In this document: positions 2,526 through 28,953 of the stretch, in pieces | Numbering within the stretch: the first letter of the stretch is position 1 | How the letters are laid out: each line of letters opens with the position of its first letter | Virus record (IMG/VR): IMGVR_UViG_3300028394_000034 | DNA from: a virus | Direction: 5' to 3' (one strand) | Length of the DNA: 64,000 bases | Position numbers and translations under genes: made by a program | The notes under the pieces: generated by a model | What the model saw: the letters and a program-made list of their open reading frames with translations, nothing else | What the model was told of the DNA's origin: nothing | The model's database searches: none

Positions 2526-2540
2526 CAGTGTATATCATAG
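2526..2540 (+). promoter_or_regulatory. Candidate phage promoter motif (GTGTA), flanked by a 10-bp direct repeat TCATAGTATA at 2510 and 2535
   Basis: CAGTGTATATCAT in an intergenic gap; GTGTA begins 45 nt before ATG 2573; same core recurs in other gaps. Confidence 0.45.
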
Positions 2541-2572
2541 TATACTTGACTACCTTTATAAATGGATCAATT

Positions 2573-5500
2573 ATGCCAGCAATTACGAATATTATTCTAC
2601 GCAAAGGACCAGCCTCTGAGTGGGTATCTGTGGACCCAGTTCTGAATAATGGAGAACCAGGATATGATACTACAAATAATATTCTAAAAATTGGAAATGG
2701 TACTCTTAGATGGTCATTATTGCCAATTGCTGGGGTCCAAGGTATTCAAGGATTGCAGGGTTTACAAGGAATATCTGGAAGTCAAGGCTTGACGGGTCTC
2801 CAGGGAATATCTGGTACTCAAGGAATTACTGGAAGTGGTAGTCAAGGTATATCTGGAAGTAACGGCAGCCAAGGCACACAGGGTATTTCTGGAAATAGCG
2901 GAAACAACGGTAGCCAAGGTACTCAGGGCATTACCGGAAATAGTGGAAGTAATGGAAGTCAAGGAATATCTGGTAGTAACGGTAGTCAAGGCATTTCTGG
3001 AAATAATGGTAGTCAGGGTATTCAGGGAATTACTGGTAATATTGGAAGCAATGGAAGTCAAGGCATAGCAGGAAATGATGGAGCTCAAGGAGCTAATGGA
3101 AGTGCTGGTAGTCAGGGAGCTCAAGGGATTACTGGGAGTCAAGGAACTAGCGGAAGCAATGGAAGTCAAGGCATAGCAGGAAATAATGGTTCCCAAGGCA
3201 TTTCTGGAATCAATGGCAGTCAAGGAACTATCGGAAGTCAAGGGATTACAGGAAGCGGAAGTCAAGGTTTACAAGGTGTCCAAGGATTAGGAGGTAATCA
3301 AGGCGTTCAAGGATTGGAAGGTAGTCAAGGTGTCCAAGGGACAAACTTTACAGGATATGATAATGAAATCCATGTTAGTCAAGTAGATGGAAATGATACT
3401 ACTGGTAATGGTGACTTATTAAATCCAGTTGCTAGTATTACCAAGGCTTTAACTTTAGTAGGATCTCAACGCAAAACAATTATTGTTCATCCCGGTGGTT
3501 ATACTGAAAATCCATCAATAACAGTTCCATATACAACTATAACTGGTCCGGGGCTTATTGGCGGTAATATAGTACTTTATGGAACATTAAGCACAAATAC
3601 TGGTTGTACAATTGCTGGAATAAAGATGACAAACCTGACCATAGCTACGCCAACTGGTGCAGGAAATGTAAATATTTTAAATTGTGAGATTTCTGGCACA
3701 TTTACAAAAAGCAGTAACGCCGACTACACTGTTCTTCGTTTATGTGACTATGGCTCCGCAAGTATTACTGGTGCAGGTTTAGTTGCTATTTTTGGTGGTA
3801 ATCCAAATTTTACAACAGTAAATAATGCTAGCGCAAATATAATTATTAAAAGCGCTGTTACTGTGGCTCCAGTTTTAACTTCTGGAACTTTAAGTCTTGT
3901 AGATTCTGTAGTAGTTGCTGCTGTGACAAATGCTATCACATCAGCCTCTTCAAGTATCATTACTTTAGCCAACTGTCAAATGCTAACTTCGGCATTAAGT
4001 AATGTCGCCCCAGTTGTACTAAGTGGATTTTATTCAATATTAAATTGCGTATATGATAAAACAAACTCAACACTAATAGCATTGTCTGCAACTGGCGGGC
4101 CTACTAATTCTATTGATTACTTTCAATATATTAATGCAGACAAGTTCATTACTCAGGGTGGGTCTTCTACCCAATTTGTGAAGGGAGACGGTTCTCTTGA
4201 TGCTACAGGACCAGTAGGTCCAACAGGATCTCAAGGCATAATGGGCGCTCAAGGTATTACTGGAAATAACGGAAGTCAAGGTGTCACCGGAAGTTCTGGG
4301 AGTCAAGGAATCTCTGGGAATACTGGAAGTCAAGGAATAACGGGTAGTCAAGGTTCTTCTGGAAGCAACGGCAGTCAGGGTATTACTGGAAGTGCTGGTA
4401 GTCAAGGAATAATAGGTAGTCAAGGAACCCAAGGCATTCAAGGATCGTACGCAAATTTAACTACATCTTTAGTTGCAGGAAGTAACATAACATTTACCTA
4501 CAACTCGGGAACAGACACTCTAACACTCAGCACAACAGTAGCACAAGGAACGCAAGGAGTTCAAGGAGTTACTGGTAGTGGCAGTCAAGGTGCCTCCGGT
4601 AGTAATGGTAGTCAAGGAGCACAGGGTATTACAGGTAATAGCGGCAGTAACGGTAGTCAAGGAACAGCTGGTAGTAATGGTAGTCAGGGAATTAGTGGAA
4701 GCAATGGCGTTCAAGGCACCCAAGGTATTACTGGAAATAGTGGAAGTAATGGGAGTCAAGGAGTTCAAGGAGTCACCGGAAATTCTGGTAGTCAAGGGAG
4801 TCAAGGAGTTCAAGGAACACAAGGATCATATGCTAATTTGACAACATCATTGGTAGCAGGAAGCAATATTTCTTTTAGCTATAATTCAGGAACAGATACT
4901 TTAACTCTTAGTACAACGGTAGCTCAAGGAACTCAGGGTATTCAAGGAATTACTGGTAGTGGTAGTCAGGGAACCTCTGGCAGCAACGGGACTCAGGGTA
5001 CAACAGGCAGTCAAGGTACTACCGGAAGTAACGGTAGTCAAGGCACAGCCGGAAGTAACGGCAGTCAAGGAATTACAGGAAGTCAAGGTATCTCTGGCAG
5101 CAACGGCAGTCAGGGAACAACAGGTACTACTGGAAGCCAAGGAACTACTGGTAGTCAAGGTACTACCGGAAGCAACGGTAGTCAAGGCACTTCCGGAAGT
5201 AATGGCAGTCAGGGTACCTCTGGTAGCAATGGCAGTCAAGGTACTATCGGAAGTCAGGGTATATCTGGAAGTAACGGAAGTCAAGGTTTAACTGGTACTC
5301 AGGGAACACAAGGCATTACCGGACCAGTTGCTGGTTCAGCAAATCAGGTTGTTTACAAAAACTCAAGCAATATTGCATCTGGAGTTTCTGATTTTGTGTT
5401 CGATGGAACTAATTTGGGTGTTGGAATAGCTTCACCAACTAGCAAATTACACGTAGTAGGAAATACTAATTTAGCCGGAACTTTAACCTTTAACGATTTT

Positions 5501-5803
5501 ACTGAAAGTGTCGTAGCTATAGGCAACAGCTCTACTGCTAAAACAATAGCTTTAACAAATGGAACTGTTCAAACTTGTACTCTTACTGGTAATTGTACAT
5601 TTACTATGCCAACTGCTACTGCTGGAAAAAGCTTTACCTTATTTCTAAATACTGGATCTGGTTCTTTTACATCGACTTTTACTGGCGTTAAGTGGTCAGG
5701 AGGCGTAGCTCCCACAGTCACTGTAACAGCTAGTAAAGTAGACATTTTAAGTTTTGTTAGTGATGGAACTTCATGGTATGGAGCATATAGTCAAAACTAT
5801 TAA
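2573..5803 (+). CDS. Collagen-like tail fibre: Mtd_N-like N-terminus, Gly-X-Y tracts, putative beta-helix, C-terminal fibre-tip domain
   Basis: N-term IILRKGPASEW..DPVL..GEPGYDTT..LKIGNG..W..LP; long GSQGxxG tracts; HVSQVDGND.TGNG..PVASITKAL..IIVHPGGYTE beta-helix-type start; C-term VKWSGGVAPT..KVDILSFVSDGTSWYG. ATG 2573 preferred over GTG 2528. Confidence 0.8.
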   Translation: MPAITNIILRKGPASEWVSVDPVLNNGEPGYDTTNNILKIGNGTLRWSLLPIAGVQGIQGLQGLQGISGSQGLTGLQGISGTQGITGSGSQGISGSNGSQGTQGISGNSGNNGSQGTQGITGNSGSNGSQGISGSNGSQGISGNNGSQGIQGITGNIGSNGSQGIAGNDGAQGANGSAGSQGAQGITGSQGTSGSNGSQGIAGNNGSQGISGINGSQGTIGSQGITGSGSQGLQGVQGLGGNQGVQGLEGSQGVQGTNFTGYDNEIHVSQVDGNDTTGNGDLLNPVASITKALTLVGSQRKTIIVHPGGYTENPSITVPYTTITGPGLIGGNIVLYGTLSTNTGCTIAGIKMTNLTIATPTGAGNVNILNCEISGTFTKSSNADYTVLRLCDYGSASITGAGLVAIFGGNPNFTTVNNASANIIIKSAVTVAPVLTSGTLSLVDSVVVAAVTNAITSASSSIITLANCQMLTSALSNVAPVVLSGFYSILNCVYDKTNSTLIALSATGGPTNSIDYFQYINADKFITQGGSSTQFVKGDGSLDATGPVGPTGSQGIMGAQGITGNNGSQGVTGSSGSQGISGNTGSQGITGSQGSSGSNGSQGITGSAGSQGIIGSQGTQGIQGSYANLTTSLVAGSNITFTYNSGTDTLTLSTTVAQGTQGVQGVTGSGSQGASGSNGSQGAQGITGNSGSNGSQGTAGSNGSQGISGSNGVQGTQGITGNSGSNGSQGVQGVTGNSGSQGSQGVQGTQGSYANLTTSLVAGSNISFSYNSGTDTLTLSTTVAQGTQGIQGITGSGSQGTSGSNGTQGTTGSQGTTGSNGSQGTAGSNGSQGITGSQGISGSNGSQGTTGTTGSQGTTGSQGTTGSNGSQGTSGSNGSQGTSGSNGSQGTIGSQGISGSNGSQGLTGTQGTQGITGPVAGSANQVVYKNSSNIASGVSDFVFDGTNLGVGIASPTSKLHVVGNTNLAGTLTFNDFTESVVAIGNSSTAKTIALTNGTVQTCTLTGNCTFTMPTATAGKSFTLFLNTGSGSFTSTFTGVKWSGGVAPTVTVTASKVDILSFVSDGTSWYGAYSQNY
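2732..5324 (+). repeat. Degenerate 9-nt-period Gly-X-Y coding repeats in four tracts, plus a duplicated ~110-bp spacer (about 4440-4555 and 4822-4935)
   Basis: Tandem agtcaagga/ggaagtaacggtagtcaagg variants; spacer QGSYANLTTSLVAGSNI(T/S)F(T/S)YNSGTDTLTLSTTVAQG occurs twice. Confidence 0.9.
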
Positions 5804-11201: not shown

Positions 11202-12119
11202 ATGCCAGCTATCAATTATAATTTTGTTATCGAACAAGGATCTGCTTTTGAGATTATCTTTCAGTACTATGATAGTAATGGAGCCTCAGTAGATCTAACA
11301 AACTGGTGTGTTTTACTACAATACAGAACAGATGCTAACAATATCCTCTCTTTCTCCAACAAGTACGACGGTTCTGCTTATAGTATGACCACAGATACTT
11401 TGGGACAAATCATACTCAGGATACCTTCAAAAACAACAACAACATATGCTTTTGGTAGTGCTGTCTATGATTTGGATTTACAAGAGCCAAATGAGCAATA
11501 TCCTAATAGTGGATTAAAAACCTACAGGCTAGCTACAGGAACTATTTCTATTGCAAGAAGAAATATTGATCCAGCATTATCTGACTGTGCCAGTACCACG
11601 GCGGGATTTCAAGCTAATGTTTGTAATATTGAATGTGGTAAATTAGATATCTATTCAGCAGTTTATGATGGTGGTTCTTTAACTATTCCAGATATGGGAG
11701 CTGTGAGCGGAAGCATAAGCACAAATGACACTAGACTTATTGAAAATATAGAGCTTGCTATCAACGGACTAAGACACAATAGTCCACAAGATCTTACTCT
11801 TCTTTTAGCTCCTCCTTCTGGCAATAAAATTTTATTATCGTCTCATAATAAGATAAAAAATTATGCTCCTGGTTTTAGCTTTATGTTTTCTAATAAAGCA
11901 GCATCAGGGACTTACATTAATAATATCAATAGTGGAGCATATTGTAATATTTCTAATAAGACTAATACCACTCGATATAATGGAGAAACACTATTAAGTA
12001 GTTTCGATCATCTTTTTAATAATGCTGTTAATGGACAATGGAAGTTTTGCGTTATTGATGATGATATTGGAACATCTGGTACTATTGACTCTTGGAAATT
12101 AATTATCACCTACAAATAA
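11202..12119 (+). CDS. Structural protein: BppU/LtfC-like N-terminal domain plus proprotein-convertase P-domain
   Basis: N-term YNFVIEQGSAF..VDLTNW..AVYDLDL; C-term TIPD...IENIELAINGLRHNSPQDLTLLL.PPSG.KILL...NGQWKFCVIDD..GTSGTIDSWKLII. Confidence 0.65.
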   Translation: MPAINYNFVIEQGSAFEIIFQYYDSNGASVDLTNWCVLLQYRTDANNILSFSNKYDGSAYSMTTDTLGQIILRIPSKTTTTYAFGSAVYDLDLQEPNEQYPNSGLKTYRLATGTISIARRNIDPALSDCASTTAGFQANVCNIECGKLDIYSAVYDGGSLTIPDMGAVSGSISTNDTRLIENIELAINGLRHNSPQDLTLLLAPPSGNKILLSSHNKIKNYAPGFSFMFSNKAASGTYINNINSGAYCNISNKTNTTRYNGETLLSSFDHLFNNAVNGQWKFCVIDDDIGTSGTIDSWKLIITYK

Positions 12120-18132: not shown

Positions 18133-21100
18133 ATGGCATCAGCATTTAACTTAACAGCTCAATTAAATCTACGAGGTCCATCTAATGTTAGTGCTATTGT
18201 ATCTAATATTAGAAGACAGCTTGGTACCATTAGTGCAAATGTTAATGTAAATATTAATCCAACAACAACCAGAAATGTAGCACAGCTTAGTGCCTCTTTA
18301 AATAATCTTAATAGAACATTTGGAACTACCACGACATCAGCTAATAATGCTGCAAGAGCACTACAAAATTTTGGCAATTCTGTTGCTCAATTTAGTAATA
18401 ATATCCGCAATGTTCCTCAACAAATCAATAATACTACCAGTTCAATTGCAAGATTAAATGCTGCTATGACTTCCTCTAGAGCCACCTCGGCGGCTGCTGG
18501 AACAGAAATGCAAGAGTTCGGTAGACAAGCAGGATTAGCCGCCAGAAGATTTGCTGCTATTTCAACGGTAACAAGTGTTATCTTTGGATTAACTAGCGCT
18601 ATTAAAGCAGGTGTTCAAGCCTTTATTGACTATGATAGAGAGTTCATTAAGCTGCAACAGGTTACTGGTGAATCTGCTGCTGGACTAAAGGGCCTTAGTG
18701 ATACTATTGGTAGTTTATCTACTAGTCTTGGAGTATCATCTAAAGAATTAGTAGACGTATCTAGTACTTTAGCTCAGGCTGGTTTAAGTGCAAGAGATAC
18801 AGAGAAAGCATTAAAGGCTTTAGCATTAAGTGCATTAGCTCCATCCTTCGATGATATGAATAAAACGGTAGAAGGATCTATTGCTTTGATGAGACAGTTC
18901 GGAATTAGTGCTGGAGATTTAGATAAAGCTTTAGGTTCGGTTAATGCTGTTGCTGCTAAGTTTGCTGTTGAAGCTAGTGATATTATTACTGCCATTCAGC
19001 GTACTGGTGGTGTGTTCGCTACTGCAAGTAAGGGAGTAAGTGAAGGAACAGATGCTTTAAATGAATTTATTTCAGTATTTACTAGCGTAAGAGCAACAAC
19101 TCGTGAAAGCGCTGAAACAATTGCTACCGGTTTAAGAACAATCTTTACCAGAATTCAAAGAGGAGATACAATAGAGGCCCTTAAAGAGTATGGTGTTAAT
19201 TTACAAGATCTAGATGGTAAATTCGTTGGGGCATTTAAGGCTGTTCAGCTTTTAAGTCAGGGATTAAGTAAATTAGATCCTAGAGATTTAAGTTTCTCAA
19301 AAATTGTTGAAGAGCTTGGTGGATTCAGACAGATCGGTAAGGTTATTCCATTAATTCAGCAGTTTGCCACAGCACAAGACGCATTAAAGGTTGCACAAGC
19401 TGGACAAGGCTCGTTAGCCGCCGACGCTGCAAAAGCACAACAATCTTTAGCAAATCAGATTAGTAAAGTTCGAGAAGAATTTTTATCATTGTTTAGAGAG
19501 ATTGGTAGCTCTGACGGTTTTCAAACTATTATTAAAGGAGCATTAACATTAACTAGTACTTTAATTAAAGTAGCAGATAGTGTTAAGGGAATTTTACCCG
19601 CTCTTGCAGCTATGTTGGCTTTTAAAGGAGCTTCTTCATTAGTTCAGTTCGGTGCAGGCTTTGTTGGAGCAGTAAGAGGACAAAGAAGAGCAGAGGGTGG
19701 TACTATCAGAAGATATGCTGCTGGTGGACATGTTCCTGGTTCTGGAGATGGAGATACTGTTCCTGCAATGTTAACTCCTGGCGAATTTGTCATGAGAAAA
19801 CAAGCTGTTCGCAGTATTGGAGTAAATAATCTTCATAGTTTAAATAGGAATGGTGGAGGACTAATACAAAGATTTGCTAATGCTGGAGAAGTATCTGATT
19901 TATCTAAGACAGAAAGGACACACATAGGACCAAAGATCCAGATATCTGCAAAAGAAGCAAAAGAAGCTAGAACTTATGGATACAAACAGGCATATGCATC
20001 TTTAGGAGTAGAAAGACAAATTGATTTTAAGCCTCATCTTCCAGCTGAATGGAATCAAAGATGGAGAAGAATTGGCTCAGGAGAACCAGTCCCGTCTAAA
20101 GATATTATAGACTATGTAGCCTCAAGAACTCCTCCTCAATTATTCGGTAATCAAGGGATCCCTCTGAGACTATATCAAAAACTATCAAGTATAAATAAGC
20201 TATCATCACTTAAACAAACTTTTTTAACTGGTTTGTCTAAACTTCCACCGACGGTATCAAAAGATCCACAATTAGATTTTATTTTACCGCAGTATATTAA
20301 ACCATTTTTAGAATCACTAGATTTATGGGGACAATTATCTAAATCACAGACACTAAGCGTTCCAAAAGAATTCTCTGGAGTTAGTGTTTTTGATAGATTA
20401 AGAATGAAAGGTGTTCCAAGAGAAAAAAGACGAACTACAACTAAGGTACGATCTGCTTTGGCAGAAAAATTTGGTGATACCTTTGCTGATGGTGGTTCGG
20501 TTCGTAAATTCGTTGATGCTGGTATGGTGACACCAACATCAGGCAGAGCAGCTACTTCTACTGATATCTTCAGAGTTCTTACTCTAGATGAAGTTATTAA
20601 AGATACTGGATCAAATCCTGGAGATATACAAAGAATATTAAAGAAAAGAAATGCACTAAGTCCATCAGAACAAGCTATCAAAGATAAAATTTTAGCAAAA
20701 TACACAGAGAAAACTTCTGGTATTAAAAAAGCAAATAATCTTGATATAGAAAAAGCAACTACAGAGGGTCTTTTGTTCGGAGCTGCTGGGTTTAAGGGCA
20801 AAGCTTTTGCTACAACTCCAAGAATAGATATTCCAGGACTACAAAATCCAGTTAAAGTTAGAATTACTAGTGGTGTTTTAGATTCTGAAATGTCAAAGAA
20901 GCTATTAAAGAAGATGAGTGGTGGACTAAATGACATAGCAAATAAAGCCTCAAGAAATATGATGATCAAGGATATCTTGAAGCAAACTGGTCCAATATAT
21001 GCTGATTTTGATAGAACATTAGCTTTCGGTGCTGACAAGATTTTAGCAGATCCAAGAAAACCCAAATATAGTGAGTTCTCTGATAGAAATAAAGTTCAGG

Positions 21101-24100
21101 GAGCCCTAGGAAAAGCCAAACTTAGTGCTCTAGGAGCAGCTATTGTTAGTACAATAAAACAAGCTCCGGAGTTTGCCAATAACCTAAATATTATTTCTGC
21201 TAGACCACAATCTACTATGGATTTGGTGGCCGGATGGTTAGCCCAAAAGGGTATTCCAATTCCTCTTAGTAGAATTAAGGGTGTTGGTGGAGAGAATGTC
21301 ACAGCAGAACAAATTGCCGTTCTCAAAGCAGACTTGATGAATCCAGAGGGAGCTTTTGTTGACGACGATGATAGAAATGTTGCAGAAGCTGAGAAGAGAG
21401 GTATTCGATCATATCTATATAAAAAGAAAAATGTTGGATCGGTATCAAGAAAGAAGCTTGGAGAAGCGAATGCACAAGGTTATTTAGCTGAGAGAATTAT
21501 TCACGAGCTAGGTGGTCCAATAGCTAATAAGGCCACAACAAACTACGGCATAGACTTTCCAGATGGCCTACAAAGTGCTGCTAAATACTTTAATCTTCCT
21601 TCAAATATTCCAACAGACGCTAAATTAACTCTTAATGGCCCAGCAGAACTAAAGGGTCAGATTGGCAATTATCTTAAAGCCAGAGGCTATGCATCAGGTG
21701 GACATGTTCAAGCTATGGTTTCTGCTGGCGAAGCTTTTGTTCCACCAGAAGAAGCAAGGCAAATAGGATATGGCAAATTAAATCGAATGAATCAAGCAGA
21801 TCGTAATGGAATGGGTTCATTTTCGTCCGGAGGCATTAGTGTTTTTAAAGGACCAGGAACAGGAACTAGTGATAGTATCGGACCAGTATCTTTACCAGTA
21901 GGTGGTTTTGTCCTTCGTGAAAAAGCAACAAAGGCTTTAGGTTTACGTTCTGGTGGTTCTGTTGGAGGAGTTAAAAGATTTCTCACTGGAGGAACAATAG
22001 AAGACGCTTCTGATGCGCTAGTTAATGCTAATAATAGAGCTATAAGACCAAGCGTTAGAAGTTTAGATAGTCGTTTAAATATTCCAACAGCACAATTAAA
22101 TGAACTAGGAGCTGCTTTAAGAGCAAGTGGAGTTCAGATGACTCAATTTGCTCAATTAGCAAGTAGAGGAGGAGATGTCTCTGTAGCTGCTGCAAAAAGA
22201 GCAATAGAAGCAGATATTAGACATTCTGCCTCTCTTGGAACAGCAACAGTATCTACAACAGCACTTACAGCAGCTAGAGAAGTATTAACTAGAGTTCAAA
22301 GTGTAGAGGCAGCTTCTGCTGAAAATGTTTCAAGAACAAGACAATCGATAGTTGCTCAAAGATTTCAAAATATAGGAAATACTGTTTCAAACGTCCCTGT
22401 TGTTGGAGGTGCAGTTCGAGGATTAGGTCGTGTTGGAAATGGATTAAACGGTCAAGGAGGATTTATTGCTTCTATGGCAGTAGGAGCTTTGGCTGGACAA
22501 GGGGAAAATATTTTTGGTAAAAAAGACTCAAGCGAAGGAGCAGCTAGAAGTAATGCCAAGCTTGAATCAGGAGCTACTGCATTATCAACAGGATTAGGTT
22601 TAGCTAGTTCAGTAGCTATGATTCCTGGTGTAGGCCCAGCATTAGCTGGAACCATAGCAATAGGAACAGCATTAGCAGTCGCTGCTGATTCTGTTTATGA
22701 CTTCTCAGGAACAGCACAGAAAGCTAGTCAAGAATTTAAACAAGGAAAAAGAACTAAAAATATAGAAGATCTTGGAGAGAGAGTTGGTAAGTCTATGGAG
22801 GCTTATCAAAAAAATCCAAGTGGAGCTAAAGAAAGAGCAGCCCTTATATCTGATTCATTACAACAAAGTAGAGCAATATCAAATGACTCTACAGAAAGAG
22901 TTAAAGACCTAAAAGCTTCAAGAGCACCGAATATCTTCCAAAGAGGACTAATAGGTCTCGGACTATCTTCTGCTAAAGGGATTGGCAATGAAGATTTAAT
23001 GCAGATCTCAAAAGAGAGTGCCAAAAAAGCAGAACCCGCTGCTGATGCTGCTAGAAAAATAATCGAACAAAGAGTAGATTCTGGAGAAAAATTATCAGAT
23101 ATTACTAATCCAGCAAGCAAAGAGTTTCAACAATTAACAGAAATTATCGCCTCTGCTAATCCAGAATTTATTAATGCTAGAGATAGAATCATGGAGATGA
23201 GCGATGCTGCTGTCGCTACCACGGGAAAAACTAAAGAGGGATTAATTGCTGAAAGATTAAGAATTGAAGGAGCAAAAATTGCTAATGATGGCTATTTAAC
23301 AGCTAAGGAAAAAACAGCAGCAGCTGCTAAAGCTATGGAGGAGGCTGATAAGGCCGGACGTCAGCTTGCCCAAAGTTTCCAAAGAATGGTTAATACATTT
23401 AATCAGGCTTTAGGCAAGGTAACATTTAATTTGGAAAAAATGGAAAATGCTAGTCAAGCTAATATAGCAGCTCTTAATGGTAATGCAAAAGTTAGTCAGG
23501 TTGTTTCTAAGAACTTAAATGTACTATCTAATCCTAGAGCTTATTCTCAAAATGAAAGAAATACTGCATACGATAATGTTTCTGCTCCTTTTGGTCAAGA
23601 TAAAGATTCAGTAAGAAAGCTATTAAATTTAGATAGTGAGAATTTAGGATTCTCTGTTAGAAACAATATAAATTCATCTCTACAAGATAGGGCTGGACTA
23701 ACTCTTGATAAAGCAGCATCAAGTAGCAGAAAAAACCTAGAACAAGAAATATCAAATCTTCCAGAGATTGTTAGAAATGAAATTTTAGGTAAATTTGATG
23801 CTATTGCAGGAAAGGTTGCTTCTGATACTACTCCAGGTATGAGTGAACAAGATAAAGTAAATAAATTAGCAAACCTATTAGAAGAAGAACTAGGTAAAGC
23901 GGCCTCAGAATCTGCTCAAAATGTTAGAAATATGGCTATCGAGTTTGAGAAAGCCAGAGTGGGAGCTCTTAATAACTTTATAGATAGTATCAATAATGCA
24001 GCAGAAGCACAAAGAAAAGCACAGAAATCTATGGCTGATGCTAGAGAAACAAGAATTGCTGGAGGAGATGCTATTAATGAAGTTCTTGGTGGTGCTCCAA

Positions 24101-27100
24101 GATCAGTAGCAACTCTACAAGGAAGACAAAACTTTAATATTGGACAATTAACTGGAGGAATAACTGATCCAGTTAAGATTAGAGAAAACATAGAAAGAAA
24201 AAATGCACGAAGAAGCCAACTAGAAGAACAAAAACAACAATTAGCAGAAGCAAAAGGAAATAATGATCCTGGAGTTATACAGCTTAGTGGTCAAATTGCT
24301 GGACTAAATACTGAAATAGCTAATAGTAGTGATGCTCTTGGTCAATTAGCTAATAGTACAGAAATAGCAACAGCTGCTTTGAATAAAATCAAAGATATTC
24401 AACAGCAAATGTCTGCCCAGGGAGATTTCTTAGATCGACTAGCAACCTCAACTCCAGAAGAAGCAGATAAGCTAGCTAAAACTTTCCAAAGACTACAAAA
24501 TAATTTGGCTGGAGGATTTAATGACGCTAGAGGCTCGCAAGCTGCACAAGAAGCATATTCAAACGCATTGCAGTCTGGAAGTAGTCATGATCAGGCAAAA
24601 ATGGCAGGTGATGCTGTTCTTGCCCAAGAGAGAGCAGAAGTATTGTCTCTGTTTAAAGACCTAAAGCCATTATTGTCTCTCTCAGGTAAGTCTGATGCTC
24701 AAATTAATGCAATGCAAGGAACAGTACGACAAGGAGTTTATACTGAAAGTGGACTACTTAATAATCCTATGTTAGGAGGAATAGCTCAAGGACAAATAAA
24801 CTATGATAGAAACCCACTTAATAATCCCGCACTACGCCAAGCGGTCGCCGAACACGATGCCGCAATCGAGAATAGAGCAGTTGCTCAAGAACAAGAAGGA
24901 AAACTTCAACTTAAAGTTGCTTCTGAGACTATGGCCTCTGCCGCCGCCAAATTTGCAGAAGCAACCCAGAATTTTGCAAAAATATTTGAGGAAATGAGAA
25001 ATGGAGATAGAAAGGTTGAACCTCCACAAAGACCCGCGCCAGGACTACCAAGAGTAGCAAATGCTCCAGCAAAAGCAAAGGGAGGATTAATATATGCTAG
25101 TGAAGGCATGTTGGTTAATTTTAAACCAAAAGGTCCAGATGTTATTCCTGCAATGCTAGCTAAGAACGAATATGTAATTAATGCTAAAGATACTATGAGA
25201 AATCTTCCTTTATTAGAAGCTATTAATAGTGGAGAAAAAATACAATATGCATCTAAGGGAGGTAAAGTAGGATATCATGCTAATGGTGGTGGTCCAATTA
25301 GCGCCTCTCGTGAATTTGCTTTACTTGATAAAAACAAAGATGGAATTTTAAGCCTACAAGAAGCTGGCGAGTATATTAAATTTGACACTAATAAAGACAA
25401 AAGAATTACTATAAGCGAATTTAATTCTCAATTTATGGCAGACAAGGAGGAAGGAAATAGAGTTAATAGAGGTGTTTCTGTTCTTAGAAGCAAAGAACAT
25501 TCTAGAAATGAAGCATTTAGAAGAGGAGTATCAGAATCTCAAGTAAGATATGAAAGAAGAGCATTATTTGCTGAGAGTAAACCAGTTAAACCTAATGCTG
25601 CTACTAGACCAGGAATGGATCAAGCTCCACCAAAAGAAAATCCTGTAGATAATGTTCCTCCTGTTCCTAAGCCTTCACCATCTAGTTCTCCACGCGGAGC
25701 TGAAAGAGAAGATCCGGCAGTTACAGCAGCTAAGAGACAACAGAGGGAAATGGATGAAGTAAGAGAAATACAAAGAAAATGGCAGGAGGATCGTGTTCTG
25801 CCTAATGCTAGAGAAGAAGCATTATTAAAAAAATATGAACAGAGACAAAGAGAAGAATCATTAAGTGAAAATCGAAGTAAAAATGAAGAAGGAAGAGTTA
25901 TTGATCAAGGAGGAGCTCCAACAACAGAATGGGGAAGAAAATATAAAGCACAGCAAGATGCAAGAAGACAAAAAAGAGAAGAAAAACTAAGAGAAGAACA
26001 GAAAAAACAAGATGATGATATGGCAGCTAGAAGAAAAGCAACAGAAAAAGCTGCTGAAGCTGCAAATAACGATCCTGAGGTACAAAAAGAAAGAGCAGAA
26101 CGAGATGCTCGCTACAAAGCAGAAGCCGAAGCTGCAAAAGCAGATGCAGCCAAATGGGCAGCAGAGAATCCAGAAGAAGCTAATAAGCTTCTGAAAAGGA
26201 ATCCAGAAACTGGTTTGATAAGTCCAGCAGAAGACAGACCTACTACTGGAGACTCATATACAGATAGATTAAGATACAGAGCTGCTGCTGATGCTCTCTA
26301 TAAAAGAGAAGAAGAAAAGAAACTTCAAAAAGAAGCAGAGGATGCTGATAAAAAAGAAAAAGCTAGTCTTGAGTCTGCATTTAAGATGGGAGAAAAAATT
26401 TACGAGAGAGAGGAAGCAGAAAGAAAACAGAAAGTACAAGAAGCAAGAGATGCAGAAGAAGAAAGACAATATCTTGCAACTCCAGAAGGACAAGAAAGAG
26501 CAAGAAGAAGCCAGGAGCAAGTAGAGCAACAAAATCTTGAGGCTTTTAGAGCAAGAAAACAGAAAGAAAAAGATGATAATGAAGCGGAGCGTGCTCGTCG
26601 TGGAGGCGGATTAGGAGGAATGACACAAAAAGATGTTGATGATGCTAATAAAACATATCAAGAATATACAGATTATGCTGGGGCAGTAGCTGGAGGGTTT
26701 TTTGAGGGATTAACAAATAATCCAATGACAAGAGTTTTATCTGGTGTTGGTTCAGCAGGAAGATATGCTGTTCAAACAGGAGCGGTAGCATTAACTACAG
26801 CAGCATCCCGAGCTATTGATCAACAAGCTAGAACACAGGCTAATTATGGTAGTCTTGGATCTTCTTCTGATGATAAACCATTAGATATTAATGGTCCAGA
26901 ATACAGAGCATATTATGATAGTCTTGGTAAATTACAAGATGCTAGTGCGGCAGGATTACAAGCAGGAGTAGTTGAGACAGCAGGAGGATTAACATCATAT
27001 GTAGATAAAAAAACGGGTAATCAACTCCTAAATTATTCAGATAGACTTAATGCACAAAGACAAGGATTAGAAGATCAATATTTGGAAGGGGCTGATGAAA

Positions 27101-28953
27101 CAACTAGAAGAACATATTCTTATGCTAATGAGGCAGCAAATTATACTCTTGACCCAACTCTTACTGCCGGAGCAGGAGTTGCAGCAAAAGGAGCTAGTAG
27201 AGTAGCTGGAGCAATAGATGCAGCAGATACTGCAAGGAGAGCAGCAGCTGAAGCAGCAGCCAAAGCAGCTGACGACGCAGCTAAAGCAGTAGCAACAAGA
27301 ACAGCAGAAAGAACAGCAGCAGCAGCTAAAGCAGCTGACGATGCAGCTGCAAGAACAGCGGCAGTAGTACGAAAAGAAGAGAAAGCAGCATCAGAAGCAT
27401 TAGCTATGGCTGACAGCACTCCAGATTTCACTCCTCCGAGAGCAACAGATGGAGGCCCCCCACAAGTTCATGGTGAAGATTTTTATGTTAATCCTGGAGA
27501 AGCAGAACAAGCGGCTGTCATGAAGAAAGCGGCAGATGAAGCAGCAGCAAGAACAGCAGCAAGAGCAGCAGAAAAAGAAGCAGCAGAAAAAGCAGCTAGA
27601 CAAGCAGAAACAAAATATCCTGTTAAGAATCCTTCACAAGAATTTAAAGACGCATATGATAAAGCAACAGCTGAAGCAGCAGCAAGGGAAGCTAGTAGAC
27701 CAAAGCCACAGACAGTAACTAATAATCAACCAGATTTAGATAAATCTTTAGATGATTATAGTAAAATTAAAGGAAATGACCCAGCAGCGCCAGCAACAAA
27801 ACCAAGATACGACTTAGACGCAGCTGTAAAACAAGATAAATTTGGCACTACTGCAACCAAAGATCAAACAGGACAAGTAGCTTCTCAACGAGCAATGGAA
27901 GGAACCGCACCAACAGCTCCAACATATCCGGCGACTCCAACAACTTCAACATATCCAAGTCCAACCCCAAGAATAAAACCAGCTGTTCGTCCATTTAGTA
28001 GAAGAGCTGGAGAATTAGCTTTAGTTGGAGGAACAACTTCAGCTGCTACTTATTTTGGAGATACTATGGGTAGGCAGATATTTACCCCGGTAGCAGAGAT
28101 GAATGATGGACTACCTCCTCTTCCTAATACTCCCCCTCAGCCAGCATTTATGCAAAATAGAGTGCCTATGGGACAAGGAGAAGTAGGAAGAGGAGGGGAT
28201 GATCTTCCAAGAGCAAATGAAGAAGACTTAGACAGAAAAAAGAAAAATGCAAAACCTAAATCTTTAGGTGGTTTAATTTATGCTAGTAATGGAGCACTGA
28301 TATCTGCCAAAAAGTCTGGTGCTGATAGGCATTTAGCAATGTTGTCTGATAATGAATATGTGGTCAATAATAAAGATTCACTAAGACACAGAGGATTGTT
28401 AGACGCTATTAATAGTGGTAATTATAGTCGTGGGGGTATAGTTAATTACATGGCTAATGGTGGAGTTGTAGGGGCAAAATATTATCAAAAAGCTGGTTTA
28501 GTAGATCATAGTGGTAATGTTCCTAGTGGAGGATCCTCCGGTGTATCTAGTAATAGTCAAATGTCGGCTGATGCTCTTAGTTCTGTTGTGGATAAATTTG
28601 GACAGCATGTGAATAATATTGCTCCTGCAATTAGCCAATTTGGAGAACACGTTGGTCAAGTATCTCCAGCGTTGATGTCTTTTGGTGGAATGGTTGGTGC
28701 TTTCGGAGGTCATGTAGAAGCTATGAGCGCTGGAGGAACTGTTAGCCATACTCATAGTGTAGAAAATAATCATAGATTTATTGGTGGTGAAAGTATTAAT
28801 AATGTATTGAACACTATGGGTGATGGTCTTAAGATAGCAGCTGATAATAGATTAAAGGATACTCTAAGAAATATTGATACATATAACGAAAATTCACTAT
28901 TAAGAGGCACAGACGCTCAAAGTATTATGGGTAAAAACAATAATATAGCATAA
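18133..28953 (+). CDS. Tape measure protein (3606 aa) with embedded accessory domains
   Basis: TP901-type core at about 18600-19500 (FIDYDREF.KLQQVTG..LAQAGL..VNAVAAKFAVEASDI..RESAETIATGLRTIFTRIQ..ELGGFRQIGK); long helical regions; repeated (Y/F)AxGG..AMLxxGE(F/Y)V motifs; HAD, nuclease-like and EF-hand inserts. Confidence 0.9.
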   Translation: MASAFNLTAQLNLRGPSNVSAIVSNIRRQLGTISANVNVNINPTTTRNVAQLSASLNNLNRTFGTTTTSANNAARALQNFGNSVAQFSNNIRNVPQQINNTTSSIARLNAAMTSSRATSAAAGTEMQEFGRQAGLAARRFAAISTVTSVIFGLTSAIKAGVQAFIDYDREFIKLQQVTGESAAGLKGLSDTIGSLSTSLGVSSKELVDVSSTLAQAGLSARDTEKALKALALSALAPSFDDMNKTVEGSIALMRQFGISAGDLDKALGSVNAVAAKFAVEASDIITAIQRTGGVFATASKGVSEGTDALNEFISVFTSVRATTRESAETIATGLRTIFTRIQRGDTIEALKEYGVNLQDLDGKFVGAFKAVQLLSQGLSKLDPRDLSFSKIVEELGGFRQIGKVIPLIQQFATAQDALKVAQAGQGSLAADAAKAQQSLANQISKVREEFLSLFREIGSSDGFQTIIKGALTLTSTLIKVADSVKGILPALAAMLAFKGASSLVQFGAGFVGAVRGQRRAEGGTIRRYAAGGHVPGSGDGDTVPAMLTPGEFVMRKQAVRSIGVNNLHSLNRNGGGLIQRFANAGEVSDLSKTERTHIGPKIQISAKEAKEARTYGYKQAYASLGVERQIDFKPHLPAEWNQRWRRIGSGEPVPSKDIIDYVASRTPPQLFGNQGIPLRLYQKLSSINKLSSLKQTFLTGLSKLPPTVSKDPQLDFILPQYIKPFLESLDLWGQLSKSQTLSVPKEFSGVSVFDRLRMKGVPREKRRTTTKVRSALAEKFGDTFADGGSVRKFVDAGMVTPTSGRAATSTDIFRVLTLDEVIKDTGSNPGDIQRILKKRNALSPSEQAIKDKILAKYTEKTSGIKKANNLDIEKATTEGLLFGAAGFKGKAFATTPRIDIPGLQNPVKVRITSGVLDSEMSKKLLKKMSGGLNDIANKASRNMMIKDILKQTGPIYADFDRTLAFGADKILADPRKPKYSEFSDRNKVQGALGKAKLSALGAAIVSTIKQAPEFANNLNIISARPQSTMDLVAGWLAQKGIPIPLSRIKGVGGENVTAEQIAVLKADLMNPEGAFVDDDDRNVAEAEKRGIRSYLYKKKNVGSVSRKKLGEANAQGYLAERIIHELGGPIANKATTNYGIDFPDGLQSAAKYFNLPSNIPTDAKLTLNGPAELKGQIGNYLKARGYASGGHVQAMVSAGEAFVPPEEARQIGYGKLNRMNQADRNGMGSFSSGGISVFKGPGTGTSDSIGPVSLPVGGFVLREKATKALGLRSGGSVGGVKRFLTGGTIEDASDALVNANNRAIRPSVRSLDSRLNIPTAQLNELGAALRASGVQMTQFAQLASRGGDVSVAAAKRAIEADIRHSASLGTATVSTTALTAAREVLTRVQSVEAASAENVSRTRQSIVAQRFQNIGNTVSNVPVVGGAVRGLGRVGNGLNGQGGFIASMAVGALAGQGENIFGKKDSSEGAARSNAKLESGATALSTGLGLASSVAMIPGVGPALAGTIAIGTALAVAADSVYDFSGTAQKASQEFKQGKRTKNIEDLGERVGKSMEAYQKNPSGAKERAALISDSLQQSRAISNDSTERVKDLKASRAPNIFQRGLIGLGLSSAKGIGNEDLMQISKESAKKAEPAADAARKIIEQRVDSGEKLSDITNPASKEFQQLTEIIASANPEFINARDRIMEMSDAAVATTGKTKEGLIAERLRIEGAKIANDGYLTAKEKTAAAAKAMEEADKAGRQLAQSFQRMVNTFNQALGKVTFNLEKMENASQANIAALNGNAKVSQVVSKNLNVLSNPRAYSQNERNTAYDNVSAPFGQDKDSVRKLLNLDSENLGFSVRNNINSSLQDRAGLTLDKAASSSRKNLEQEISNLPEIVRNEILGKFDAIAGKVASDTTPGMSEQDKVNKLANLLEEELGKAASESAQNVRNMAIEFEKARVGALNNFIDSINNAAEAQRKAQKSMADARETRIAGGDAINEVLGGAPRSVATLQGRQNFNIGQLTGGITDPVKIRENIERKNARRSQLEEQKQQLAEAKGNNDPGVIQLSGQIAGLNTEIANSSDALGQLANSTEIATAALNKIKDIQQQMSAQGDFLDRLATSTPEEADKLAKTFQRLQNNLAGGFNDARGSQAAQEAYSNALQSGSSHDQAKMAGDAVLAQERAEVLSLFKDLKPLLSLSGKSDAQINAMQGTVRQGVYTESGLLNNPMLGGIAQGQINYDRNPLNNPALRQAVAEHDAAIENRAVAQEQEGKLQLKVASETMASAAAKFAEATQNFAKIFEEMRNGDRKVEPPQRPAPGLPRVANAPAKAKGGLIYASEGMLVNFKPKGPDVIPAMLAKNEYVINAKDTMRNLPLLEAINSGEKIQYASKGGKVGYHANGGGPISASREFALLDKNKDGILSLQEAGEYIKFDTNKDKRITISEFNSQFMADKEEGNRVNRGVSVLRSKEHSRNEAFRRGVSESQVRYERRALFAESKPVKPNAATRPGMDQAPPKENPVDNVPPVPKPSPSSSPRGAEREDPAVTAAKRQQREMDEVREIQRKWQEDRVLPNAREEALLKKYEQRQREESLSENRSKNEEGRVIDQGGAPTTEWGRKYKAQQDARRQKREEKLREEQKKQDDDMAARRKATEKAAEAANNDPEVQKERAERDARYKAEAEAAKADAAKWAAENPEEANKLLKRNPETGLISPAEDRPTTGDSYTDRLRYRAAADALYKREEEKKLQKEAEDADKKEKASLESAFKMGEKIYEREEAERKQKVQEARDAEEERQYLATPEGQERARRSQEQVEQQNLEAFRARKQKEKDDNEAERARRGGGLGGMTQKDVDDANKTYQEYTDYAGAVAGGFFEGLTNNPMTRVLSGVGSAGRYAVQTGAVALTTAASRAIDQQARTQANYGSLGSSSDDKPLDINGPEYRAYYDSLGKLQDASAAGLQAGVVETAGGLTSYVDKKTGNQLLNYSDRLNAQRQGLEDQYLEGADETTRRTYSYANEAANYTLDPTLTAGAGVAAKGASRVAGAIDAADTARRAAAEAAAKAADDAAKAVATRTAERTAAAAKAADDAAARTAAVVRKEEKAASEALAMADSTPDFTPPRATDGGPPQVHGEDFYVNPGEAEQAAVMKKAADEAAARTAARAAEKEAAEKAARQAETKYPVKNPSQEFKDAYDKATAEAAAREASRPKPQTVTNNQPDLDKSLDDYSKIKGNDPAAPATKPRYDLDAAVKQDKFGTTATKDQTGQVASQRAMEGTAPTAPTYPATPTTSTYPSPTPRIKPAVRPFSRRAGELALVGGTTSAATYFGDTMGRQIFTPVAEMNDGLPPLPNTPPQPAFMQNRVPMGQGEVGRGGDDLPRANEEDLDRKKKNAKPKSLGGLIYASNGALISAKKSGADRHLAMLSDNEYVVNNKDSLRHRGLLDAINSGNYSRGGIVNYMANGGVVGAKYYQKAGLVDHSGNVPSGGSSGVSSNSQMSADALSSVVDKFGQHVNNIAPAISQFGEHVGQVSPALMSFGGMVGAFGGHVEAMSAGGTVSHTHSVENNHRFIGGESINNVLNTMGDGLKIAADNRLKDTLRNIDTYNENSLLRGTDAQSIMGKNNNIA

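Follow-up and report, generated by a model that had tools for sequence, protein, structure and literature searches.

A putative phosphatase cassette of the HAD superfamily inside the giant tail tape measure protein of an uncultured phage

Tape measure proteins (TMPs) of phages are usually regarded as rulers and channel formers, which leave the tail upon infection and help to form the conduit for the DNA, and wall-degrading motifs are their only common enzymatic additions. Here we describe a predicted phosphatase domain of the HAD superfamily that is embedded in a giant TMP encoded by the virus record IMGVR_UViG_3300028394_000034, of which a stretch of 64,000 nucleotides is called the window below.

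In Thermus phage P23-45, the 5,002-residue TMP gp96 is fused to a virion RNA polymerase that transcribes the pre-early genes (PMC10770324). This polymerase was proposed to work at the TMP pore ahead of the expression of other phage genes, and its function was shown experimentally (PMC10770324). The TMP in the window resembles gp96 in being a giant TMP with an enzyme domain in the same polypeptide, the enzyme of gp96 being directed to the cytoplasm, whereas it differs in that gp96 carries an N-terminal RNA polymerase and the present protein a predicted, internal phosphatase cassette behind its PF10145 core. In mycobacteriophage TM4, the TMP contains peptidoglycan-hydrolase motifs (PMC1796659), an example of an accessory enzymatic motif that is dispensable for tail assembly. 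These motifs target the cell wall, whereas the chemistry of a HAD phosphatase is different and has no known role there.

Among described phosphatases, the C-terminal 3'-phosphatase domain of T4 Pnkp (PseT; PDB 5uj0, 1ltq and 2ia5) shares the S-x-R form of motif II (S211-G-R213 in T4). Unlike this soluble early enzyme, the TMP domain has no fused kinase, is embedded in a virion protein and has 64 instead of 46 residues between motifs I and II. The deoxynucleoside-5'-monophosphatase Dmp of phage T5 (PF26880, phrog_415) has the same spacing of 64 residues, with T-A-R as motif II where the TMP domain family has [ST]-A-R, and both share a weak link to phrog_415. According to its annotation, Dmp is encoded by a pre-early gene on the first-step-transfer DNA and acts at the very start of infection; it is made from a free-standing gene after DNA entry, whereas the TMP domain is part of a virion protein, and there is no significant sequence match between the two. 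The class B acid phosphatase AphA (PDB 1z5g and 2b82) resembles the TMP domain in its HAD fold, its small cap and a motif II of the T-G-R type, but is a periplasmic homotetrameric bacterial enzyme for which no sequence-level relation to this domain was detected. A literature search on HAD phosphatases and tape measures yielded no paper describing a HAD domain in a TMP, and a survey of polyvalent proteins mentions neither tape measures nor phosphatases. HAD phosphatases as such are known, as are enzymatic motifs in TMPs and a single fusion of a TMP to an enzyme; the HAD family together with the context in which it is carried is new.

Active site, fold and kin of the HAD domain

Six tape-measure PHROGs match residues 26-556 of the open reading frame in question (phrog_28 at 6.1e-34), its relatives carry the label 'TP901 family phage tail tape measure protein' in one source, and a check of gene order in the window places it among large structural-type open reading frames. 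By these matches it is the tail tape measure protein of an uncultured large phage. The HAD-coding segment is read in its single uninterrupted frame, downstream of the PF10145 core. The same TMP is also recorded on a 125-kb JGI contig, and no close relative of the window was found among 50,697 GenBank phages by tblastn of the cassette module and megablast of the TMP region. The features of the gene and of the HAD domain are as follows.

18133-28953, + strand: TMP open reading frame (P0002), 10,821 nt, 3,606 residues; from the open reading frame list and translation, PF10145 and the TMP PHROGs
18700-19284, + strand: PF10145 PhageMin_Tail core, residues 190-384; Pfam match at 1.3e-22
20902-20979, + strand: N-terminal helix of the cassette, residues 924-949; helix at model residues 2-25, absent along with the HAD core in cassette-less relatives
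20980-21426, + strand: predicted HAD Rossmannoid core, residues 950-1098; pLDDT above 90, aligns to T4 Pnkp 157-298, top Foldseek matches are HAD enzymes
21004-21021, + strand: motif I, D958-x-D960-x-T962-L963 (D-F-D-R-T-L), putative nucleophile and general acid/base; invariant in the 39-sequence alignment
21196-21204, + strand: motif II, S1022-A-R1024 (in I-I-S-A-R); S/T in 87/87 and R in 87/87 homologues
21325-21327, + strand: motif III, K1065; K in 88/89
21361-21378, + strand: motif IV, D1077-D1078 with N1082 (F-V-D-D-D-D-R-N), the Asp pair at 21361-21366; D in 89/91, D in 90/91 and N in 72/91

A sequence-only reading of the window had placed a complete HAD domain inside the TMP at 20980-21425. 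This segment indeed corresponds to residues 950-1097 in the frame of the open reading frame at 18133-28953, and the four HAD motifs that it listed are all present and in order, with offsets within 3 nt.

HMMER was run exhaustively on 1.84 billion cluster representatives with the 261-residue piece at residues 925-1185 (P0003) as query and gave 103 homologues, 89 of them under 1e-10, almost all in proteins of 2,000-7,900 residues. The N-terminal TMP region is common to 88 of the 103, nearly all of the proteins that bear the homologues are TMP-like, and the members all come from uncultured phages. From IMG/VR and JGI metagenome loci, mostly on contigs of 60-240 kb, a 39-sequence alignment (A4) was made, the members of which are 28-86% identical to the HAD copy of the window; overall, the proteins with the HAD domain are only 30-50% identical. 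Over the representatives, motif I retains the nucleophile Asp in 87/87, the Asp at +2 in 87/87 and the Thr in 86/87, and the invariant columns of the 39-sequence alignment include D958, F959, D960, T962, L963, A1023, R1024, K1065, D1077 and D1078. The order that defines the HAD superfamily, D-x-D-x-[TV] in motif I followed by S/T in motif II, K in motif III and DD or GDxxxD in motif IV, is thus present, and on these counts the motif match is far more than chance would produce. The catalytic HAD residues are the most conserved positions, and therefore selection for catalysis is indicated; at the level of the alignment, strong purifying selection on the predicted active site is shown. A pattern scan of bacterial and archaeal genomes gave no relative.

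Structure prediction with AlphaFold2 on the 39-sequence alignment gave a mean predicted local distance difference test score (pLDDT) of 81 and a predicted template modelling score of 0.77, with pLDDT values of 93-97 in the HAD part and above 90 across residues 20-175 of the piece. The topology of the model is that of a HAD Rossmannoid, in which strand 1 leads into motif I, strand 2 into motif II, the Lys sits on a helix and strand 4 leads into the two Asp residues; a small helical insert (helices at residues 55-93 of the piece) occupies the C1-cap position. Top matches in a Foldseek search against the PDB were HAD proteins only, among them AphA (best E value, 1.4e-4), phosphoserine phosphatase, Pnkp1, T4 Pnkp, MDP-1 and HisB-N. 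AlphaFold2 and Foldseek hence both returned the HAD fold on which the sequence-only reading had staked its claim. A VIA structural search likewise ranked only HAD enzymes at the top, the best solved structures being T4 Pnkp and the Pnkp1/Rnl/Hen1 RNA-repair phosphatase, with residues 26-174 of the piece on T4 Pnkp 157-298, and in BFVD most of the top matches that have a name are called 'PNKP phosphatase domain-containing protein' or 'polynucleotide kinase/phosphatase'. The offsets of these ranges put D958 on T4 D165 and D1077 on T4 D277, the motif residues of T4 being confirmed by reading pseT, and hhalign independently pairs F-V-D-D with A-I-D-D of T4 (D277-D278). Judged by the model, residues 924-1098 very probably form a HAD fold with a working active site, and the closest structural neighbour across the whole domain is a PNKP-type phosphatase. 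A D-x-D motif, thus an Asp at +2, marks a HAD protein as a phosphomonoesterase or mutase acting via an aspartyl-phosphate and Mg2+, and HADs with small caps tend toward macromolecular substrates.

Placement by sequence is less direct. The HAD piece of the window has no Pfam or NCBIfam match even at an E value of 10 and its own PHROG search gave nothing useful; none of the 39 alignment members reaches an E value below 0.08 with the HAD Pfam families. PDB searches by sequence (phmmer and the family profile) gave nothing significant, seven of the 17 sub-threshold matches of the profile being HAD superfamily proteins over the motif III-IV part. However, phrog_415 is matched by 15 of the 39 members (best E value 3.6e-5; the copy of the window is unmatched) and, at 0.0018, inside a 5,294-residue open frame of a complete relative. 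A check of the content of phrog_415 showed that T5 Dmp matches it end to end at 3.6e-57. T4 PseT matches it with its phosphatase half at 3e-24, and matches phrog_505 at 1e-125. By ESM features, taken as a lead only, the nearest neighbours are all small viral HADs, from the HAD_SAK_1, acid phosphatase B and T5 dNMPase (PF26880) clusters, and hhalign to the single T4 PseT and T5 Dmp sequences gave short or non-significant alignments in the right register. The nearest kin therefore appear, through a weak link, to be small phage HADs, namely the 3'-phosphatase of T4 Pnkp and T5 Dmp, both in phrog_415, and the TMP domain is regarded as a new, divergent HAD family in the neighbourhood of the phage Dmp and Pnkp phosphatases. 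The sequence-only reading had described it as having little cap, like the T4 PNK 3'-phosphatase class. The small C1-cap insert and the structural proximity of PNKP agree with this, but membership of that class by sequence is not borne out, since neither the HAD piece nor the 39 members match PF08645 or phrog_505; the spacing of motifs I and II also differs from that of T4 Pnkp. Overall, the interpretation offered in that reading is supported in part.

An optional in-frame cassette and its adjoining module

The HAD core is followed by two further elements.

21430-21687, + strand: second conserved module, residues 1100-1185 (85 residues), with an E...D...(D/E)xK-R-T pattern; from column counts in the homologues
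21688-21738, + strand: Gly-marked spacer motif (Y-A-S-G-G ... G-E-A-F), directly after the second module; found by a regular expression over P0002

Searched with the profile of the 39-sequence alignment, 82 representatives contain both halves of the piece, four stretches contain the HAD alone and 16 stretches only the second half. In three relatives (P0088, P0091 and P0094), residues 787-941 and 1111-1192 of the window's TMP align to segments about 23 residues apart; according to the local alignment, a short linker of about 25 residues replaces residues 924-1098, and both the K-V-R-x-x-S-G-V flank and the module further downstream are retained. On these alignments, the HAD unit together with its N-terminal helix forms a discrete, dispensable in-frame insert; about 85 related giant TMPs (clusters) share it. 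Of the 12 relatives with the flank at residues 560-924, 11 carry the cassette and P0088 is the sole exception, which makes it a stable feature of the lineage to which the window belongs, as far as these alignments go. As the cassette is optional, an accessory rather than a structural function is favoured.

In the second module, the E is conserved in 93/105 homologues, the D in 105/105, the D/E in 103/104 and the K in 101/104. Folded alone with AlphaFold2 it reaches a pLDDT of 51, no sequence model or PDB profile recognises residues 1100-1185, and an ESM search gave no usable match. A nuclease with a PD-(D/E)xK fold is consequently a candidate only, an unproven lead. At least 12 giant TMPs have the module but no HAD with it, and P0008 has two copies of the module.

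The Gly-marked motif recurs at 19696-19791, 25081-25176 and 28267-28362, with a short F-A-D-G-G at 20482-20496. Its recurrent form, G-G ... P-A-M-L ... G/N-E-F/Y-V plus a short F/Y-A-x-G-G, brackets the cassette region, and the copies cross-match many sites in related TMPs by BLAST.

Two relatives add to the picture of these proteins. The 7,122-residue P0027 has two copies of the HAD cassette, of which the copy at residues 3478-3713 comes with the second module and that at residues 2279-2440 lacks it. P0004 and the TMP of the window form a mosaic, with 98% identity over the 261-residue module, 77% overall and 38% over residues 560-924, which suggests recombination inside the TMP gene.

A proposed delivered phosphatase and its alternatives

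Since the HAD domain lies inside the TMP polypeptide, it would be carried in the tail and leave with the TMP. As part of the TMP it would be built into the tail, exit at infection and then act as a pre-made accessory enzyme ahead of phage gene expression. In the predicted site, Asp958 would be the nucleophile and Asp960 the acid/base, Ser1022, Arg1024 and Lys1065 would hold the phosphate, and Asp1077 and Asp1078 the Mg2+. By analogy with the RNA polymerase fused to the P23-45 TMP, we consider it reasonably likely that the domain is delivered and useful at infection. The fuller statement, that residues 924-1098 are a self-contained, catalytically competent HAD phosphomonoesterase that is delivered with the TMP and thus pre-made at infection, is our preferred reading by a modest preponderance. 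Its active site and its position in the TMP are read directly from the frame and the alignments, whereas tail delivery and early action are what that position would entail.

Nucleic-acid ends or nucleotides seem the most likely substrates. Our more specific guess, offered with less than even confidence, is that the enzyme would act on nucleic-acid ends with a 3'- or 5'-phosphate, at the DNA entry channel or close to it, because each virion would hold few copies of the enzyme, the cap is small and would keep the site accessible to macromolecules, the best structural match is to Pnkp phosphatases and the usual neighbouring module has a nuclease-like pattern. More speculatively, and in our view rather doubtfully, the giant TMPs of a large group of uncultured phages might be modular delivery scaffolds with swappable enzyme cassettes between Gly-marked spacers, in which the HAD would be a nucleic-acid-end phosphatase at the entry pore that edits the ends of phage DNA as it comes in, or of nucleic acids that the host has cleaved, and so protects the genome or blunts defence before expression.

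Several points weigh against a delivered enzyme of the Pnkp kind. The tail-tube lumen, about 4 nm wide, could hardly accommodate a folded domain of about 150 residues in each of several TMP copies; the domain may be unfolded in the virion, which assumes refolding after ejection. Besides the catalytic motifs, T4 Pnkp has the extra essential residues R176, R213 and D254. R1024, the equivalent of R213, is invariant, but R176 and D254 are without obvious conserved counterpart, by offset in the alignment. The spacing between motifs I and II fits the mononucleotidase T5 Dmp and not T4 Pnkp. The nuclease fold of the neighbouring module is unconfirmed, and this module also exists without HAD. Without a significant Pfam, NCBIfam or PDB profile match, the family placement rests on structure and weak PHROG matches, and the family members all come from uncultured phages, with no match to a GenBank phage.

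The main rival for the substrate is a mononucleotidase like T5 Dmp, in which the cassette would dephosphorylate free nucleotides, (d)NMPs or others, as soon as it has entered. This would be a counterpart, at the protein level, of the T5 pre-early programme, in which breakdown of host DNA is followed by dephosphorylation of the deoxynucleoside monophosphates. The identical spacing of 64 residues and the T-A-R form of motif II speak for it, as do the full-length membership of T5 Dmp in phrog_415, the sole family matched by relatives of the domain, the PF26880 clusters among the nearest by ESM features, and an hhalign alignment of residues 30-117 with Dmp 16-103 that runs through both motifs, although non-significant (E value 0.22). 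Yet PF26880 is unmatched in 39/39 members at E values up to 1, Pnkp phosphatases rank first structurally (we know of no Dmp structure in the PDB for comparison), and the few TMP copies per infection would suit few macromolecular substrates rather than bulk nucleotide pools, so that we regard this activity as unlikely. RNA repair is a still less probable role. Here the injected phosphatase would strip the 3'-phosphate or 2',3'-cyclic phosphate left by host anticodon nucleases, after which the tRNA could be resealed. The best solved structural matches, T4 Pnkp and the Pnkp1/Rnl/Hen1 phosphatase, and the ESM lead HAD_SAK_1, which belongs to 'Swiss Army Knife' RNA-repair proteins, would suit this role, and healing of RNA ends had been put forward in the sequence-only reading. 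That idea is weakened, and T4-style healing and sealing is not supported, since a Pfam scan detected no kinase domain adjoining the HAD or elsewhere in the TMP and PF09414 RNA ligase was absent from all five complete related phage genomes, in which the positive controls were matched; moreover, cassette-less relatives are otherwise similar. The PF09511 search in the relatives gave no match, but its positive control was also silent and it is uninformative.

A phosphatase of the envelope or periplasm, which would ease penetration by working outside the cytoplasm, either on phosphorylated components of the envelope or as an acid phosphatase like AphA, would parallel the peptidoglycan hydrolase motifs of other TMPs. 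We hold this to be as improbable as RNA repair, as AphA scores were not distinct from those of other HADs, no signal ties the family to envelope substrates and its usual partner module bears a nuclease-like motif. It would be most surprising if the domain were no enzyme at all, either a chance motif match or a HAD-fold module retained only because the tape measure uses it for structure or docking. The domain escapes the curated sequence models and TMP interiors are presumably helical spacers as a rule, but in about 90 divergent homologues the catalytic residues are the most conserved ones, and the fold is predicted with confidence and is specific to HADs. A structural role is also disfavoured because TMP architecture can do without the cassette.

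If the domain is a delivered phosphatase, a conserved, optional HAD cassette in about 85 giant-TMP clusters would generalise the single RNA-polymerase case, with the tail lumen serving to carry enzymes that are directed to the cytoplasm. The HAD family defined here, a compact domain of about 175 residues, escapes all curated models. A substrate among nucleic-acid ends or nucleotides would indicate a step very early in the conflict between phage and host that is independent of gene expression.

Other features of the tape measure gene and the window

Further downstream in the TMP, an EF-hand-like loop at 25315-25374 (residues 2395-2414) matches PF00036 below threshold (E value 3.7e-4, under the gathering score), and one relative has a precomputed match to PF13202. 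Residues 2481-3300 (about 25570-28030 of the window) form a long stretch rich in Lys, Glu, Ala and Pro that has one match among the 103 relatives, and the maximum of the AT skew (0.33) falls in this stretch. The GC content of the window is low (32-40%).

Elsewhere in the window, a 305-residue protein encoded at 11202-12119 has a proprotein-convertase P-domain (PF01483, 1.4e-7), the surrounding virion-region genes being otherwise unrecognisable. A 1,091-residue protein encoded at 2528-5803 combines Mtd_N (PF18454, 9.2e-11) with long collagen triple-helix repeats (PF01391, 5.4e-69), and by these matches looks like a fibre or receptor-binding protein.

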